A model generated the notes under the pieces. The model made no database searches. It was not told where the DNA came from and saw only the letters and a list, made by a program, of their open reading frames with translations. A stretch of 64,000 nucleotides of DNA from a virus (taxonomy: Duplodnaviria > Caudoviricetes), in IMG/VR virus record IMGVR_UViG_3300031414_000007, positions 146,532 through 210,531 of that record. One strand, 5' to 3'. Below, piece by piece: positions 37,152 through 51,100 of this stretch; positions within the stretch are counted from its first letter, which is position 1; every line of letters starts with the position of its first letter. A program made the position numbers and the translations under genes.

Positions 37152-37191
37152 CTATTCTCCTGTGTAAAAATTTTCTCGTTCTTCTGAATTA

Positions 37192-40830: not shown

Positions 40831-40858
40831 GCGTTATTCCTCTATGTTGATTGCTGTT

Positions 40859-40867
40859 AGTTTACAG
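40859..40867 (-). promoter_or_regulatory. CTGTAAACT box upstream of the 64-aa ORF
   Basis: Core CTGTAAA retained. Confidence 0.5.
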
Positions 40868-40869
40868 TA

Positions 40870-41394
40870 TCAATCACTCTTGCCCATTTGGCGTTCGAGC
40901 ACGTAAGCCAGATAGTCATCCCACGTAGCGAAACCATCTTTGGCCAACATACGGTCAAACTCGCGGTCAGACTTAGATCCCTTAGGAAAGCGAATCTTGT
41001 TGGACAATCGTTGCAGTCGGTCGTACATGAACCGAGACTGTTTGACAATCGGGTTCTTTTCCGGCAAGTGATTTTGCAACAGCTTGTAACTGAACACCAA
41101 CGGAAAATCTTTGTTAGGTACTGTCTCTCCTAGCAAACGATGCACCGTGTTCAGGTACTGCTCGATTTGCGCGTGACATTCCTGGTGAGCGTAGTACCAG
41201 TCGTCCAGTGATGCAAGTCCATAAGTTTCCTCATAAACCATTGCGTCATACATGACCATGAGAATCGGCTTCTCTTCCTTCTTTTCTTTGTACGCCTGAA
41301 ACAAAACTGGGCAAGTCCCATATTTGTTTTGCAGCATCGTTTCCAAGATTGCTGCGAAGCGTACAACTTCATATTCGGTAAGTACCTTACTCAT
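40870..41394 (-). CDS. Hypothetical protein
   Basis: 174 aa, GGAG RBS. Confidence 0.65.
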   Translation of the reverse strand: MSKVLTEYEVVRFAAILETMLQNKYGTCPVLFQAYKEKKEEKPILMVMYDAMVYEETYGLASLDDWYYAHQECHAQIEQYLNTVHRLLGETVPNKDFPLVFSYKLLQNHLPEKNPIVKQSRFMYDRLQRLSNKIRFPKGSKSDREFDRMLAKDGFATWDDYLAYVLERQMGKSD

Positions 41395-41397
41395 ACT

Positions 41398-43014
41398 TCA
41401 CTCCGAGAATATCTTTTTGTCAGAAAACTTCTTGAGCACAAACTCGGCACAATCGCTCGTCACGCTGTCTCCATCAACGCAGAGTAGCGCACCGTCATGC
41501 TCAAGGGAATACACACCCTTGACGTTCGGACAATTAAGAATAGCATCGAACAAATACAAACTCTCCCAGCCAGACAGCATGTGGTTGAGAATGCGTTTGT
41601 CAATCTTCTTGCCTGTGTCGTCAGGATCAGGATCGTAGTTAGATCCTGTCGGGCACTGGAGTACCCCATACTCGGGTCTTCGTGCATTTTTATTCTTGCG
41701 GAACTTAGACCGATACACGTTAAGCAATTCTTTGATCGCAAGATACAGAGGAGTCATCCTCGTGTTCCAGTCTAAGATTTCCTCTTTCACTCTCGAAGCT
41801 GGTACGAAGCGAGCTAACTCTTTATAGACGTTGCTGTACTTCGTTGGTTCAAGTTGACCTGCCGAAAAAATTGTACCATACAAACAAACCTTGGCTGCGC
41901 GTCTGTCAAGTTTCATAATGCGGCTAATGTCGTCAACAGAACTAATCTGGTCGAACATCGCACACGCAATACCGTAAGCGTCAAACTCCCTACGCAACAC
42001 GTTGAACTGGCTGGACTTCATATCCCAGTTAGTGCCAATCGTGTAGCACTGCTCCTTCAAGTCCGAAGGTAAGTTCTGGAACCCACCACCGACCTCGAAC
42101 AATCGCCCGCCAATCTGAGACAGCCTATACTTCGGCCAGTAGCGAACGACAAGAGGTTTCTCGCTAACGATCTGAACAGGACCCGACACTATGGTATCGA
42201 GTAACGTTTTCACCTGCAGGTATTGCTTCTTCGCCTTGTGATTAGCAATCAACGATTTGTCTTCTAAATAAGCAAGTATAGGGTCGATGTTCACTTCATT
42301 AGGCATCAGCTTATCAAGTACCTGTCGATAAAGAGCACGGCCACTAAGCACCTTAGAGTTTCCTCTGTCTCGGTTGCGATCAAGCGAACTAAGATCGTGC
42401 GTAGGGCGTTTGAAAGGCAGCTTAGAATTTTTCTGAATCTGTGACCACACTGTCACACCATAATCCTCTCTTAAAATTTTAAGAGGACTATAGAAACGAA
42501 TGCGGTACAAAATATCGTAATGCGACTGCGGCTTAAAATGCCCGTACATCCCGTCTAAGATTTCAGGACGCATCCTAAACTCCCGACTAAGGCCCTTTTC
42601 TTTGTTGTAAGGCTTCGTTTCAAATACGTTAGCCATCAACCACTCAAGGGACCTACCGTACGTGCCTTTTTTAGACTTGGCATATCGCCCGACAGCAACA
42701 TTATCGCCACCTCGCTTGTGTCCGAAGACCATCGGTAGCTTTTCTTTTCCTAATGAGCTTGGAAACGGCACCCAGACCCGTCCAAACTTCTTTTTCTTGT
42801 GTTTACGTGCAGGATAAAGACTGCATTGAAGAATGTGCCAGAAGAATAAGTTCAATTGAGCACGAAACTCAGATCGCTCGCTCTCGGGGCCGTCGTAGGG
42901 ACAGGCATCAAGAACATGTTTTCGCACCCACAAAACAACTTCCTTCTCCTGGTAAGAGGGGTTCGTGATTAATACTGGCCCCTGACCGGAAACGATTCGT
43001 TTTTTCATGTTCAC
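41398..43014 (-). CDS. Minimal superfamily-A polymerase-fold protein (no exonuclease domain)
   Basis: GGRLF..GGGFQNLP, motif A WDMKSSQ, motif B RRAAKVCLYGTIF, motif C LEHDG, in correct order and spacing. Confidence 0.6.
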   Translation of the reverse strand: MNMKKRIVSGQGPVLITNPSYQEKEVVLWVRKHVLDACPYDGPESERSEFRAQLNLFFWHILQCSLYPARKHKKKKFGRVWVPFPSSLGKEKLPMVFGHKRGGDNVAVGRYAKSKKGTYGRSLEWLMANVFETKPYNKEKGLSREFRMRPEILDGMYGHFKPQSHYDILYRIRFYSPLKILREDYGVTVWSQIQKNSKLPFKRPTHDLSSLDRNRDRGNSKVLSGRALYRQVLDKLMPNEVNIDPILAYLEDKSLIANHKAKKQYLQVKTLLDTIVSGPVQIVSEKPLVVRYWPKYRLSQIGGRLFEVGGGFQNLPSDLKEQCYTIGTNWDMKSSQFNVLRREFDAYGIACAMFDQISSVDDISRIMKLDRRAAKVCLYGTIFSAGQLEPTKYSNVYKELARFVPASRVKEEILDWNTRMTPLYLAIKELLNVYRSKFRKNKNARRPEYGVLQCPTGSNYDPDPDDTGKKIDKRILNHMLSGWESLYLFDAILNCPNVKGVYSLEHDGALLCVDGDSVTSDCAEFVLKKFSDKKIFSE

Positions 43015-43406
43015 ATCATGATTACCTGATTTTTCTATCGTTTCTTTACAGTTTCAGACAACTCTTAACCCGAAAGCTACTACAGCGCTAATGCTAGGAA
43101 GGCTAAGGCTACAGCAGGCTTGCTACAACGCTCATGGCATGCTTCAACAATAGTTCTACAGGTACATCTTTAGGCGGCACGTTTCAGAGACATAGAAAAT
43201 AAAGAAACCATGTCCTCAGCAGCCCGAACTATAGTCCATACGCACTATAGGCAGCGATCTAGCGGAAATCCCTAGGTCGTCTAAACCGTGTAAATTTTCC
43301 GTCAAAAACAGTCCGTTTTTTAACCAAACGCCCTTTTTGACTCTGAAAATGAGGAAAATCCGAGAAAAATCAAGGACTTTCCCCTCTTTTGAAACGAAAA
43401 ATCAGA
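43015..43406. other. Non-coding locus with short repeats and helically phased A/T tracts; candidate replication origin or packaging site
   Basis: Six GCTA copies in 43076-43125, ACTATAG twice, eleven A/T tracts about 10.4 bp apart in 43292-43401. Confidence 0.45.
43043..43051 (-). promoter_or_regulatory. CTGTAAAGA box upstream of the PolA-fold gene
   Basis: Core CTGTAAA retained. Confidence 0.5.
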
Positions 43407-44066
43407 TCACTTTTTCTGTGAGACGCGTTTTCCGAGCTTAATCCCGATTTGAGTCAGAATTTTCTTAACTGTTTCACCGTCATGCTCTTCCATAGCAGTG
43501 GCTAGGCGTTCGCCCTGTTCGCGCGATAGCTCAGGCATAACCATTTTAAGCATCTGCGAACGCAGTTTTGCGCTCTTTGATTTGCCTTTCGAGACAGACA
43601 CGCCTTCATTCGCCTTAAGCGCACTGCTAATCGCTTTCTGCACACGACGATCACCAAAAATGTCGCCGAATATGTCACCGAACAGGTCCTTGAACGACAA
43701 TCCGCCGCCCATAATGTCGTCTTTCGTGAAACGAACAGGCACACCCAGCGCATTCACTTTATTGCAATGCACCGATTCAACCTGATTCGTTGTACGTCCA
43801 CCGGCAAGGAAGTTCTCGTCAGGGCGTGACGCTTTGCCCTCAGCGCCCGGCTTACTATTGCCGTTGCGTAAATCCGGGTCGCCTTCAACCTGTTTGTTTT
43901 GATCAAACATATCGTCGGCTGTTTCGCTTTGATTTGGGTCGAACGGGATCTTGCCTGTCAGCTTGTTTGCGTCAGGCCAGCTATCAGGAATATCAGAAGC
44001 AGGCTGTGCCTTGTTCGTCATATCACCGTTCGCTTCACCACTCAAACTGATCTTAATACGAGCCAT
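43407..44066 (-). CDS. Tagged probable virion protein
   Basis: 219 aa, starts MARIKISLSG; internal VSVSK. Confidence 0.6.
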   Translation of the reverse strand: MARIKISLSGEANGDMTNKAQPASDIPDSWPDANKLTGKIPFDPNQSETADDMFDQNKQVEGDPDLRNGNSKPGAEGKASRPDENFLAGGRTTNQVESVHCNKVNALGVPVRFTKDDIMGGGLSFKDLFGDIFGDIFGDRRVQKAISSALKANEGVSVSKGKSKSAKLRSQMLKMVMPELSREQGERLATAMEEHDGETVKKILTQIGIKLGKRVSQKK

Positions 44067-44075
44067 GCTAATCTC

Positions 44076-45185
44076 CTATCGAATTTTATAGCCTTTGAAA
44101 ATGTTATACGCAATCTCTTTGCGCTGTACGGGACGAGTGACGCACACCCATTCCCACTGATCGTTTTTCGCTGTGCGTTTCTTCGGTGCTTCCATAACTT
44201 TCAGCACGTAGTTTTTGAAAGGCAGAACGAGAATGTCTTCCGGCTCAATCGCGCCGCTGCGAGCAGGCAGAACTACCGTGATGTTGCCGACAGTCAGTTC
44301 CTGATCGTAGTTGAGCACGTTTGCTTCTTCGCTGATGTTGCCTTTAACAGGCGGAACACCTAAGTCAAAGATCATGGTGCAGTGCGTGAATGCCTCAATG
44401 CCTTTGACGCGAATCGTTACATGCTTGCCGCGCCAGCGTTCCAGATTCTCTGCTGTCAGATCGACTTCAACGCCGTTCACTAGCAGCATAGGACGTGGGA
44501 AAGCAGGAAGCAGAGTTTCATTCAGACGTACCGAATAAGTCGCCTGCGTAAAGTATTTTGGAATAAGCTGATCAAAATCAGCGTAGCCGTCTTTACGTAC
44601 CTGCCTGAATGTTGCGGGGCTGGTGGACTGATCAAGAGTATAGCCAGTCAGCTCTTTAATGTGATGATGCGTAGCGATGTTGTAGACAAAGCCAGTGCTG
44701 ATAAAGCCGGGCACAACACCCTGACGGAAACAGATACCGCAGTTCGCAACGTTGCCGCCGTCCCATTTAACGTCGAACTCCTCACCTGAGTCTACGCCCA
44801 TGATATCGGCTGCGTCCATAACGGCGTTCATGCCATCATCAATATCGTCGAGGGTTACTGCTTGACGTCCACCGCCAAACATGCCCTTGCCTACGGTATC
44901 GATCTTAACGCCGCCTGACATTGAATCAGATTCTCGGCCAAGGCTTTTCATGCCTGCCGGAATATTGTCCATAATGTCGTTCTCAACCTTGTTGCAACTA
45001 CAGGTGAGACCCATCTTCGCTTTCTTGAAGATGACAATATCGGTGGCGTCAACCGCAAGCGCCTGTTCGACTTTGGATTGCACGACCTTCTGAATACTGT
45101 CGAGGCGTTGCTGGACACGTTCAGTTTCGTAGGTCTTGTGCCTGTCATAGGTATTTCGTGGTCTCCCACGTTCAATCCAGCTCAT
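44076..45185 (-). CDS. Probable virion structural protein with CxC/CxxC motifs (possible neck/head-closure)
   Basis: 369 aa; CSC...CGICFRQG; CTAATTT upstream. Confidence 0.45.
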   Translation of the reverse strand: MSWIERGRPRNTYDRHKTYETERVQQRLDSIQKVVQSKVEQALAVDATDIVIFKKAKMGLTCSCNKVENDIMDNIPAGMKSLGRESDSMSGGVKIDTVGKGMFGGGRQAVTLDDIDDGMNAVMDAADIMGVDSGEEFDVKWDGGNVANCGICFRQGVVPGFISTGFVYNIATHHHIKELTGYTLDQSTSPATFRQVRKDGYADFDQLIPKYFTQATYSVRLNETLLPAFPRPMLLVNGVEVDLTAENLERWRGKHVTIRVKGIEAFTHCTMIFDLGVPPVKGNISEEANVLNYDQELTVGNITVVLPARSGAIEPEDILVLPFKNYVLKVMEAPKKRTAKNDQWEWVCVTRPVQRKEIAYNIFKGYKIR

Positions 45186-49640: not shown

Positions 49641-50699
49641 CTACTTTCCTTTCTTCTCTATTGCCTTTGGTCTATTCCACCCAAGTTCTTTCGCAGGCAT
49701 GATGCACTTCTTACCGTGAATATCACGCAGCGTCATACGAACTTCTTTGATCAACTTGAATGGTGCGTTGTCGGGGTCGAGCTTAATCAGCTTGCCGTCT
49801 TCATCAAACTCACGAGGTAGTTTAAAGTGCTTGACCGGTACTGGTGAGTTACGTTCAAATTCATCTTTGATCTTTGTGCGCAACAACTTCCCACCACCAT
49901 CGTTATCTGTCATCGTATAGACAACACTCACGCCAAGCATTTCAATCGTTCTGCGTTTCGTTTCACCAAACTGCTCTGCACCGAGAACAGCCAGCGCTGG
50001 TATTCCGTATGACAGGAGAGCCAGAGCATCTCGCGGACCTTCGACAAGAACGATGTAGCGCAACTTGTACTTCTTCAAACACTCTTTGACCAGAGGCAGT
50101 GGGAACAGGCCTTTGTCTTTTGCCCAATCGCCTTGCGAGTTCACATAGCTGGTGCCGTTCATTTGCTTACGCAGATAAGCTGCAATCCCACCTATGTATT
50201 TCGTTCCATGCTTACACGGAAAGAAACAAACGTTTGTGCCTGTATGCTGCGCATTAAGCAGACCACCAGCAGCACGAACAAGCGCACCCGGATATCCACG
50301 CCACTCAACATCAAGCGGCCACTCCATGTATGACTTACGTCCGAGTGCTTTCATCAATAGACCGACAGACGGATAGGTACCAATCTTCGAGCCAATCTGA
50401 TCATACGTTTTAAGCAAGGCACTGAGCGAGTTCGTTCCTGCGTCTTTTAACGCCCAGCCTTTGATCTCTTGCAGTCGAGCGTGAGCCGCTAATTTATTCC
50501 AGCCGCCTTTCTCGCCACAGCCGAAGCAGTGAAAGAATCCGAGTGGTATCTCCATGCCTACAGAAGTGTAAATACCACAACTAGGAGTCTTATCACTGTG
50601 GAACGGACAGCACACCATAACAGTGTCGCCGTTATATTTCTTCTCGCCCGGCAGTTTACCTATTTCGTCAAGAATTATCTGATGAACGTCTTCTGCCAT
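49641..50699 (-). CDS. dnaG: DnaG-type DNA primase
   Basis: Zinc finger CPFHSDKTPSC...CFGC; TOPRIM LVEGPRD and DNDGGG. Confidence 0.9.
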   Translation of the reverse strand: MAEDVHQIILDEIGKLPGEKKYNGDTVMVCCPFHSDKTPSCGIYTSVGMEIPLGFFHCFGCGEKGGWNKLAAHARLQEIKGWALKDAGTNSLSALLKTYDQIGSKIGTYPSVGLLMKALGRKSYMEWPLDVEWRGYPGALVRAAGGLLNAQHTGTNVCFFPCKHGTKYIGGIAAYLRKQMNGTSYVNSQGDWAKDKGLFPLPLVKECLKKYKLRYIVLVEGPRDALALLSYGIPALAVLGAEQFGETKRRTIEMLGVSVVYTMTDNDGGGKLLRTKIKDEFERNSPVPVKHFKLPREFDEDGKLIKLDPDNAPFKLIKEVRMTLRDIHGKKCIMPAKELGWNRPKAIEKKGK

Positions 50700-50738
50700 A
50701 CCATCCTCTGTCTATTTCGTAATTTACGCATATAAGCA

Positions 50739-50747
50739 TATTTACAG
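50739..50747 (-). promoter_or_regulatory. CTGTAAATA box upstream of primase
   Basis: Exact motif. Confidence 0.7.
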
Positions 50748-50764
50748 ATATAGGGATAACTAGA

Positions 50765-51100
50765 ATGGGTAACCAGCATCGTTATGTAGCTTCGGTAGAA
50801 CGTCGCTTTTATGGACCTCAATGGTTGGCGCTATGCGACCTGATTAAGGTAGAGCCTCAGACGTGTGGTGCGTTCGCAAAGAACGGCCATATGATGGGAC
50901 TGACTCTGCCTAAAGAGTTTGATGTTGAAGCTGCAACAAAGAGCCTGCGCCTTGTCTACGCAGTCAAGGAAGAAGACGTGGCCGTGCGCTGTTACCTGTT
51001 CGGTACTCGCTACTACAAGTTCGTTTTCTTTGAACAAACAATTGCCGTAAGCGAGGATGATTATGAGAACGTTCGCAAACGTACCAGCGCGAGTCAATGA
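50765..51100 (+). CDS. Hypothetical protein
   Basis: 111 aa, divergent from primase. Confidence 0.55.
   Translation: MGNQHRYVASVERRFYGPQWLALCDLIKVEPQTCGAFAKNGHMMGLTLPKEFDVEAATKSLRLVYAVKEEDVAVRCYLFGTRYYKFVFFEQTIAVSEDDYENVRKRTSASQ

Follow-up and report, generated by a model that had tools for sequence, protein, structure and literature searches.

The iteron origins of lambda (ori), pSC101 and R6K (gamma) combine intrinsic bends with IHF sites, and the packaging sites of SPP1 (pacL and pacR) and lambda (cosB, with the IHF site I1) are likewise bent. Lambdoid phages exchange their origins and initiators as units. The late promoter of T4, TATAAATA, is read by the phage's own sigma-like protein, gp55. 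We know of no origin, packaging site or promoter that has been mapped experimentally in the PaBG/Lu11/Y3/Alexandra group of jumbo phages, some members of which are candidates for the biocontrol of fire blight and soft rot. In T4, the more active origins sit near the places where transcription diverges and nucleotide skew shifts, and the role of the iterons found at T4 oriE is unproven (PMC3016281).

We describe here a non-coding gap at positions 43,015 to 43,406 of a 64,000-nucleotide stretch of DNA (‘the window’), part of a 210,531-bp contig, 79% complete, from an Alexandravirus-type Erwinia/Dickeya jumbo phage. The gap lies between two genes of the minus strand. The one transcribed towards it encodes a protein of 219 aa (43407–44066, minus strand; TGA stop at 43409–43407); it matches PHROG 31583 (7e-94) and has syntenic homologues in 56 phage records. 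The one transcribed away from it (41398–43014, minus strand) encodes a polymerase-like protein of 536–538 aa. Pfam has no match for the three proteins that neighbour the gap, a sequence search of the PDB with the same three returned nothing significant, and the Atlas has no match for the 219-aa protein or for the 369-aa protein. No coding potential was found in the gap itself. An earlier, sequence-only reading of this DNA had called it one of the two largest gaps; by crude ORF calling it ranks third or fourth in the window.

We consider it about an even bet (a probability of roughly 0.5) that the gap is a transcription boundary between minus-strand units, furnished with an architectural bend. 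Transcripts of the 369-aa and 219-aa genes would stop at an A/U-rich hairpin and U-run (43390–43345), and some 300 bp farther on a CTGTAAA box would restart transcription, now for a second family A polymerase gene. A- and T-runs one helical turn apart make up both the terminator and the DNA on either side of it, and give the region its extreme predicted curvature; host IHF may sharpen the bend at a conserved AATCAAGGACTTT in the hairpin loop. The bend may serve to insulate the two transcription units from one another; alternatively, it may fold the 250-bp spacer, with its two conserved boxes and its CTGTAG repeats, onto the polymerase promoter, and so control the timing of expression. The bend sits 250–350 bp upstream of the CTGTAAA box; classical upstream curved activators lie closer to their promoters than this.

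The predicted intrinsic terminator of the upstream unit is a hairpin picked out by a consensus terminator scan (43345–43390, minus strand). Its 11-bp stem (43384–43351) begins 22 nt past the stop codon of the 219-aa gene and pairs 43384–43374 (GGGGAAAGUCC) with 43361–43351 (GGAUUUUCCUC) across a 12-nt loop, with AAAA ahead and AUUUUC behind. The RNA folds more stably when read from the minus strand (−17.8 to −20.5 kcal/mol) than from the plus strand (−11.8), and its G·U pairs can form on the minus strand only; on the other they become A·C mismatches. All 13 pairs are largely kept in 13 relatives, three of the pairs display compensatory double changes, and a U-run stands 3′ of the stem in every clade that bears the hairpin (relatives read UGUUUUU or CAUUUUU). 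A stem–loop just past a stop codon, an A-run before it, a U-run after it, and covariation that preserves the stem are features of intrinsic terminators, including the bidirectional ones flanked by A- and U-runs, and it is to this class that we liken the hairpin. It differs from other members in several respects. The stem is A/U-rich, with three G–C pairs counted by the consensus scan and G·U at two positions in the alignment fold; the 12-nt loop is conserved to a degree that exceeds the needs of a terminator loop; and the hairpin element is at the same time the most curved stretch predicted in the genome. With an A/U-rich stem and a short U-run, the efficiency of termination is uncertain.

The hairpin lies within an array of phased A/T tracts (43285–43410), which has the highest predicted curvature of any DNA in the contig of this jumbo phage. 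Helical phasing of the tracts had been noticed from the letters of the DNA, and it stands up to measurement. Tracts of at least four bases, ten in number, are centred at 43294.5, 43306, 43319.5, 43336, 43348, 43357, 43367.5, 43388.5, 43399.5 and 43413; three-base tracts lie near 43328 and 43380, and 105 bp divide into ten intervals with a mean spacing of 10.5 bp. In a parameter-free Fourier test, the AA/TT power at 43281–43400 peaks at 10.25–10.5 bp, and its value, 4.16, is the highest among the 120-bp windows of the 210,531-bp contig; the next locus reaches 2.01. Curvature prediction, proposed earlier as a check, also ranks the array first in the contig. A wedge model with Bolshoy parameters, which serve for ranking only, assigns it 182–184 degrees (182 over the 126 bp of the array) versus a genome mean of 38–43 degrees with a standard deviation of 20–22. 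The runner-up in the contig, at 133 degrees, is the opposite edge of the same gap (42960–43044), which takes in the leader next to the promoter and the opening codons of the polymerase-like gene. None of 5000 mononucleotide shuffles matches the observed bend. Roughly 80% of it (150 of the 182 degrees) arises in the stretch that runs from the stop codon to the terminator's far end. Curvature is not general in the intergenic DNA of this phage (mean bend, 39.5 degrees in non-coding and 38.0 in coding DNA). A purely generic role in termination or promotion leaves this one extreme site unexplained.

Of 22 phage relatives, 14 have their local maximum of bend at the syntenic position, and the bend is absent from about one third of the relatives. 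The SNUABM_16/35/7/52 group, which carries a different terminator, lacks it, as do SNUABM_32 and JA11, and these phages lack the conserved boxes 4 and 6 (discussed below) too. The Yersinia phage fHe-Yen9-02 has a bend of 199 degrees at the same place, in different sequence, and in a metagenome relative the bend recurs at 189 degrees. We infer that the bend is under selection as shape. At its apex, spanning the loop and the 3′ arm of the hairpin and preceded by AAAAA, is a candidate IHF site, AATCAAGGACTTT (43368–43380, plus strand), which agrees with 12 of the 13 positions of WATCAANNNNTTR, the IHF consensus as used in PMC9452768. The match to WATCAANNNNTTR is exact in Y3, and exact on the opposite strand in the gaps of JA11 and L027; the whole contig holds only seven exact matches. 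The candidate is a lead toward IHF binding.

At the other end of the gap is CTGTAAA (43045–43051, minus strand), predicted from its sequence and placement to be the promoter of the polymerase-like gene. It is 31 nt from a GTG at 43014 and 37 nt from an ATG at 43008, and belongs to a single-box class in this phage. The class consensus, aAATCTGTAAATA, has 26 sites located 15–120 nt upstream of same-strand starts, and aAATCTGTAAATA sites agree in orientation with the local genes in 45 of 48 cases. With a leave-one-out matrix the local box scores 18.2, against a training range of 13.7–25.1. TTTACAG, the same box read on the plus strand, is kept in 22 of the 23 relative gap rows that were scanned (Yoloswag is the exception) and occurs 29–49 nt from the gene start in all of the Alexandravirus-group and Y3 relatives; in JA11 it is present farther upstream of the annotated start. 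In its position 15–120 nt before starts, its orientation with the genes and its lack of a recognisable −35 partner, the class resembles the late-type single-box promoters of T4, although the box itself differs in sequence from the T4 late box. A Pfam search of the contig for Sigma70_r2 gave no match; sigma genes have been reported for the PaBG/Lu11/Y3 group (PMC7412058).

The gene that this promoter would serve probably encodes a second, minimal family A polymerase, judging by its modelled structure. That a neighbour of the gap has a PolA fold was among the claims of the earlier reading, and structural comparison agrees: residues 199–530 align with Klenow at Z 15.4, and every top Foldseek match is a PolA enzyme. 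Motifs A, B and C are present, and an exonuclease domain is absent. Over its N-terminal 180 residues the protein bears a weak resemblance to winged-helix domains. Folded alone, the N-terminal 200 residues have no Foldseek match at E up to 0.001; VIA-align gives a best Z of 4.9, with rows of the winged-helix type only, at noise level, among them RepE, pPS10 RepA, ORC2 and DnaD. Gap, polymerase-like gene and a 174-aa gene together make up a swappable cassette of 2.6 kb (40843–43408). Identity to SNUABM_30, for example, is 97.0% up to 40842 and 95.8% from 43409, with no alignment between, and the break points are identical in many other records. Since exchange involves the whole spacer along with the polymerase-like gene, as one cassette, the cis elements of the spacer most likely serve that gene. 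The locus presents a short, delimited set of cis elements next to an unusual second polymerase, with at least four natural cassette variants available for comparison. If the bend merely insulates two operons, its function is an ordinary one, yet useful to know for annotation.

The spacer between the array and the promoter carries two conserved boxes and a set of short repeats. Box 4 (43271–43298) reads CCTAGGTCGTCTAAACCGTGTAAATTTT on the plus strand and has the core CACGGTTTAG on the minus; box 6 (43164–43184) reads ACATCTTTAGGCGGCACGTTT on the plus strand and has the core GCCTAAAG on the minus. Both are found in the Yersinia phage and in the metagenome relative L025, and both are single-copy: a search of the contig for extra copies of box 4, box 6 and the hairpin found none beyond chance. 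The short repeats (43076–43161, minus strand) share one orientation and consist of three CTGTAG and one TTGTAG; on the plus strand these read CTACAG or CTACAA, at 43080, 43109, 43123 and 43156, spaced by 29, 14 and 33 bp. CTGTAG is promoter-like in appearance. Repeated 5-mers, in 3–5 copies, are significant in close relatives (P 0.000–0.007) and in the Yersinia phage (P 0.029). They are not significant in SNUABM_34 or in other cassette types, and the idea that each cassette type has a repeat motif of its own was dropped for this reason. Six copies of GCTA had been counted within the repeat region, and all are present (43076, 43087, 43093, 43102, 43108 and 43122); at the genome density of 2.5 per kb, ∼0.12 would be expected per 50 bp. 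The term ‘iteron-like’, used earlier for these repeats, does not fit them. The motifs are only 5–7 nt long and irregularly spaced, and are not iterons in the usual sense; the longest direct repeats in the gap are imperfect, two-copy ones of 9–19 nt.

A possible but less likely reading makes the gap a replication origin (perhaps one among several) tied to the adjacent polymerase-like protein. The bend, perhaps together with IHF, and the CTGTAG/GCTAC repeats would then assemble a nucleoprotein complex, the N-terminus of the protein would bind the repeats, and initiation would either be iteron-like or proceed through an R-loop, as at oriF and oriG of T4. Much of the evidence already given is consistent with this. 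No other bend in the contig is as strong, and relatives conserve it as a shape; the conserved boxes are single-copy; the short repeats are oriented, and significant in close relatives and the Yersinia phage; spacer and polymerase-like gene swap together; and the N-terminal domain matches solely proteins of the winged-helix type, all at noise level. Replication genes are nearby, among them those for a clamp loader, a primase and a Holliday junction resolvase. The main PolA and DnaB-like helicase genes are far from the gap. Bend, box 4 and box 6 are dispensed with altogether, moreover, by the SNUABM_16/35/7/52 group, SNUABM_32 and JA11.

Comparison with the origins of T4 cuts both ways. The array is a non-coding, A+T-enriched element of ∼100 bp that lies beside phage-specific promoters of the class found ahead of replication and recombination genes. 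Like the more active T4 origins, it is also near a point where the transcribed strand switches and nucleotide skew shifts. The switch from minus- to plus-strand genes described earlier is real; it occurs at 45185/45285, 1.8 kb from the locus, which is also close to the trough in GC skew. Cumulative skew, suggested at the time as a check, makes no turn at 43 kb, where it is still falling; the trough spans 45–51 kb, with its minimum at 50745. As a test for an origin skew is uninformative here, because the strand of a gene can hardly be separated from its position; counter-oriented genes of at least 600 nt number only three. In the one clear counter-oriented gene the skew follows the coding strand, and the location of the strand switch and skew is for that reason weak evidence for an origin of the T4 type. 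Unlike oriF and oriG, the array has no promoter of the class firing into it: the only candidate, a plus-strand TGTAAA that faces the array, scores 1.7 versus 13.7–25.1, and reads TGCAAA in the Yersinia phage. Minus-strand transcription that enters the array runs into the terminator. Nor is the array, phased and curved as it is, maximally unstable. It is only moderately AT-rich (64%), its duplex ranks within the top 1.2% of windows for instability by nearest-neighbour values, and at least ten other loci are less stable.

What the locus has in common with iteron origins is its curvature, a possible IHF site, direct repeats that are short and all face one way, and an adjoining gene, swapped along with the cis region, for a replication protein that possibly binds DNA. 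In place of iterons of 17–22 bp at helical spacing, however, the locus has its short, irregular motifs, and these are significant in just one cassette type. A stronger form of the origin reading, which we regard as doubtful, holds that the 2.6-kb cassette is a portable replicon, in which a minimal family A polymerase, fused to a winged-helix-like DNA-binding domain, would recognise the CTGTAG/GCTAC repeats and boxes 4 and 6 of its own spacer, folded by an intrinsic bend with the help of IHF, and start synthesis there. The cassette types would in that case be alternative origin–initiator pairs. A true origin coupled to the polymerase-like protein would represent a new way of starting replication.

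It is improbable that the spacer is the gene of a small non-coding RNA or specifies a long regulatory leader. On this view boxes 4 and 6 would act as elements of the RNA, and the bend would belong only to the architecture upstream of its promoter. The conserved boxes are split by variable, indel-bearing stretches, as happens in RNA genes, and a hairpin between the boxes displays some double changes (alignment columns 91–99 with 112–121). The A/T tracts, with TTTACA after them, look like an UP element joined to a −35 box. Searches directed at RNAs and their promoters nevertheless came back negative. Rfam at E up to 1 has no match in 42500–44000, and a scan of the window for tRNAs and tmRNAs gave none. 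RNAalifold, applied to 43050–43305, returned an unfavourable covariation term (+0.69) and no covarying long-range fold. A sigma-70 consensus scan of 42800–43600 at 9/12 matches yielded no site, and inspection by eye around TTGACG and TTTACA revealed no workably spaced −10 box that is kept in relatives. The CTGTAAA box, finally, has no terminator ahead of it.

That the bend is a functionless by-product, A/U-rich terminator runs having happened to fall into phase at ∼10.5 bp, is no likelier in our estimation. The 42 bp of hairpin and U-run do contribute 112 of the 182 degrees, and SNUABM_16/35/7/52, with their different terminator, have no bend. Shuffles that preserve the tracts, however, match the observed bend in just 19 of 5000 cases. 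Equally strong bending occurs in fHe-Yen9-02, past the T-run and in unrelated sequence (153 degrees within 60 bp), and Yoloswag and L025 retain a bend with other sequences again.

Least credible is that the gap is a pac or other DNA-organising site bound by a small terminase or a nucleoid-like protein, a candidacy raised in the sequence-only reading and one to which nothing now points: the combination of a strong intrinsic bend and a central IHF-like site, both within a non-coding element that is unique, does recall pacL/pacR of SPP1 and cosB of lambda, the elements are single-copy, and these phages are thought to package by a headful mechanism (PMC6256631), but no terminase gene adjoins the locus (Pfam Terminase_6N and Terminase_6C have no match in the 79%-complete contig), the start points of public relatives are arbitrary or aligned, with none at the locus (PMC6256631), and the cassette is swapped among near-identical phages, which would be unusual for a site tied to a conserved terminase.

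Several minor features of the gap were also considered. Box 4 was tried as a plus-strand promoter of the CTGTAAATA class and rejected: its matrix score is 1.7 where the class has 13.7–25.1, its TGTAAA (43289) is preceded by G or A instead of the C of the class, and this TGTAAA reads TGCAAA in fHe-Yen9-02. A look-alike of box 4 at 37162 is merely part of a 5′ leader. A plus-strand ORF of 30 codons, starting from an ATG at 43349, was set aside, neither the ATG nor the frame being kept in relatives; on the same grounds, the small CDSs annotated in the gaps of SNUABM_3/40, SNUABM_32 and fHe-Yen9-02 appear to be spurious. Two further motifs from the sequence-only reading survive in part. ACTATAG does occur twice, at 43228 and 43244, but is not conserved in relatives, and the tetramers of the CTAG element are present at 43259 and 43272, with conservation that is only partial.

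The window, the final 64 kb of a 210,531-bp contig with an estimated completeness of 79%, groups by megablast with the Alexandravirus/Sasquatchvirus jumbo phages of Erwinia and Dickeya; the nearest phages are AD1, pEa_SNUABM_1, 33, 2 and 30, 2910A and Y3, each of ~260 kb. The non-coding gap at 43015–43406 separates a 219-aa gene, ending with a TGA codon at 43409–43407, from a gene for a polymerase-like protein of 536–538 aa, starting with GTG at 43014 or ATG at 43008. Both genes lie on the minus strand, and the gap's transcribed strand therefore runs from 43406 to 43015. In this direction a terminator, a cluster of repeats and a TCTGTAAATA promoter follow one another, all upstream of the polymerase-like gene. 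The best-supported reading of the gap is a transcription boundary, comprising a terminator, an architectural bend, control elements that are unexplained, and a promoter that would drive a second polymerase-like gene. The gap is syntenic, at 329–576 bp, in all relatives examined (four genera and several metagenome contigs); that of JA11 is 862 bp as annotated, the annotated start apparently lying well inside the gene. Small coding sequences annotated within the spacer (1367–1528 of the SNUABM_3 and SNUABM_40 loci, L013 and L014; 3750–4004 of SNUABM_32, L009; 2833–3224 of fHe-Yen9-02, L024) are probably not genes, as frame and start codon are unconserved among relatives.

The sequence-only reading had described an array of helically phased A/T tracts with repeats upstream, and all of the sequence items that it listed are found at the locus. 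The phasing is confirmed, and is statistically striking. The tracts (43285–43410) are spaced 10.5 bp apart on average. AA/TT Fourier power, computed over 120-bp windows and requiring no structural parameters, peaks here at 10.25–10.5 bp with the highest value of the contig (4.16, vs 2.01 at the runner-up locus). Curvature prediction, proposed as a check on the array, gives 182–184 degrees vs a genome mean of 38–43 (sd ~20) by a wedge model that sums dinucleotide wedge vectors, with Bolshoy parameters used for ranking only. The second-ranked predicted bend of the contig, 133 degrees, is the opposite edge of the same gap. When tracts were kept intact but moved, the observed bend was reached in only 19 of 5000 shuffles, so the phasing, beyond tract content, is unusual. 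Predicted curvature is 39.5 degrees in non-coding and 38.0 in coding DNA of the phage; the bend site is singular, and curvature is no general trait of the phage's non-coding DNA.

Much of this bend coincides with a hairpin, GGGGAAAGUCC-(12 nt)-GGAUUUUCCUC, that begins 22 bases past the upstream stop codon on the minus strand, preceded by AAAA and followed by AUUUUC. The hairpin contributes 112 of the 182 degrees, and 150 when the 24-bp stop-codon stretch (43410–43387) is added. A consensus scan rates the hairpin terminator-like, and predicted folding energies are −17.8 to −20.5 kcal/mol for the minus-strand RNA vs a poor −11.8 for the plus strand. Most of its 13 pairs are retained among 13 relatives, with double compensatory changes at three (e.g. 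GGAUAAACC/GGUUUAUCC in SNUABM_1), and two positions are mostly G.U, which on the opposite strand would be A.C mismatches. We take the hairpin to be a minus-strand RNA element and, on the simplest view, the upstream unit's intrinsic terminator. Its loop is conserved far beyond the needs of a terminator loop, and contains, on the plus strand, an IHF-like site, AATCAAGGACTTT, matching 12 of the 13 positions of the consensus WATCAANNNNTTR (as used in PMC9452768). The Y3 site matches exactly, as do sites within the gaps of JA11 and a metagenome relative (L027); exact matches number just seven across the entire contig. This candidate site is a lead, and IHF might assist the architectural bend within the transcription boundary. 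An imperfect direct repeat of 19 nt, TTTTGACTCTGAAAATGAG/TTTTGAAACGAAAAATCAG, flanks the hairpin on both sides (43335–43353 and 43387–43405) at a spacing of 52 bp, five helical turns; the repeat is retained in the window's closest relatives.

At the same place, just past the upstream stop, a bend of 172–220 degrees forms the local maximum in 14 of 22 phage loci. In fHe-Yen9-02 the hairpin sequence differs and a 199-degree bend follows a T7 run; the metagenome contig L025 bends by 189 degrees, and Yoloswag (L022), whose sequence is unrelated, by 173 degrees. Little or no bend is predicted in SNUABM_16, 35, 7 and 52, in SNUABM_32 and L029, and in JA11 and L026, whose gaps carry other sequences. 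Shape is thus often kept despite sequence change, which argues for selection on shape, although its conservation is not universal.

Further downstream are two conserved blocks, box 4 (43271–43298) and box 6 (43164–43184), each single-copy in the contig and kept in close relatives, Y3, the Yersinia phage fHe-Yen9-02 and L025. Between box 6 and the promoter lie 3–5 copies of a CTGTAG/GTAGC motif, all in one orientation; the GCTA copies noticed earlier are this array read from the opposite strand. In shuffling tests the repeats reach significance for the window, AD1, SNUABM_1, 33 and 2, Y3 and fHe-Yen9-02, and not for SNUABM_34 or other cassette types. They had been called iteron-like; true iterons were not found in the gap, which counts against an origin. 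The transcribed strand of the Yoloswag gap carries TAGGCGCCCG in two direct copies ~50–90 nt past the upstream stop, similar to the window's box 6 (TTAGGCGGCAC) but oppositely oriented.

The promoter-like CTGTAAA box (43051–43045, minus strand) belongs to a class derived from the contig itself. The hexamer TGTAAA is depleted genome-wide (31 and 30 copies per strand vs ~54 expected), its copies are mostly CTGTAAA, and 45 of 48 CTGTAAA are oriented with the local genes. Twenty-six lie 15–120 nt ahead of a same-strand start and yield the consensus aAATCTGTAAATA, a single-box promoter-like motif found genome-wide (in the window at, e.g. 46209, 50746, 57670, 63113 and 36858). Against a matrix made without it, the gap's box scores 18.2 (class range 13.7–25.1), and it is retained in 22 of 23 scanned rows of relatives' gaps, the exception being Yoloswag. 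Phage-encoded sigma factors are reported from this lineage (PMC7412058), in keeping with a single-box promoter specific to the phage.

The gene next to the gap (41398–43014) encodes a second polymerase-like protein of family A, lacking an exonuclease. Its 536-aa product has no Pfam match and no PDB sequence match. The PolA fold proposed for it was borne out by motifs A, B and C, visible in its alignment, and by an AlphaFold model (pLDDT 83) in which residues 199–530 match Klenow, Pol theta, Taq and other family A enzymes (Foldseek E 3e-6; VIA-align Z 15.4). The first 180 residues, folded alone, return only winged-helix-type rows (ORC2, TFIIE, RepE, pPS10 RepA, DnaD and others) at Z ≤4.9, within noise. 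The phage's recognisable PolA is 39 kb distant, and its DnaB-like helicase is far off. Identity between SNUABM_30 and the window is 97.0% as far as 40842 and 95.8% from 43409, with no alignment between, and these break points recur in many further records; spacer, polymerase-like gene and the next, 174-aa, gene are thus swapped as one unit. Their homologues share only ~45% protein identity. Joint exchange implies that the spacer's cis elements go with the polymerase-like gene, whether they control it or are used by its product. The 2.6-kb mosaic cassette (40843–43408), of which there are at least four types, is replaced in SNUABM_30, 32, 17, 35, 20, 3, 22 and 16 and in Alexandra, between flanks that remain 80–97% identical. 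The AD1 homologue (L001, 3399–5418) is annotated over 1053 nt only, leaving a 967-bp ‘gap’ whose DNA aligns with the relatives' full-length gene, a frameshift or annotation error in that record.

A replication origin, as first proposed, is a live rival to the transcription boundary, though on balance we think it unlikely. In its favour are a bend without equal in the contig and conserved in shape, boxes unique within the contig, oriented repeats, and the spacer's tie to a polymerase-like gene among replication genes. Against it, the bulk of the bend is the terminator, and one third of relatives lack both bend and boxes 4 and 6. In T4, oriF and oriG are ~100-bp units of a phage promoter and an A+T-rich unwinding element (PMC3016281); here, to the detriment of the origin reading, the array's instability is moderate (top 1.2%, at least 10 loci being less stable), and no promoter of the CTGTAAA class fires into it. 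As the earlier reading held, the global minus-to-plus gene switch is close, at a measured 1.8 kb, and the more active T4 origins are located at transcription-strand switches (PMC3016281). By the GC-skew check the locus is near the cumulative trough, but the curve continues to descend at 43 kb and is lowest over 45–51 kb. Skew is also inseparable from the influence of the coding strand: the only clear gene of opposite orientation follows its own strand (−0.151). A pac site, the other function suggested, is most improbable, with nothing specific in its favour. The global skew minimum, at 50745, falls inside a 66-bp divergent gap beside the lone minus-strand Toprim primase gene (49641–50699). This gap is among the contig's ten least stable segments and bears a CTGTAAATA box, and the locus (49641–50765) is a candidate alternative origin.
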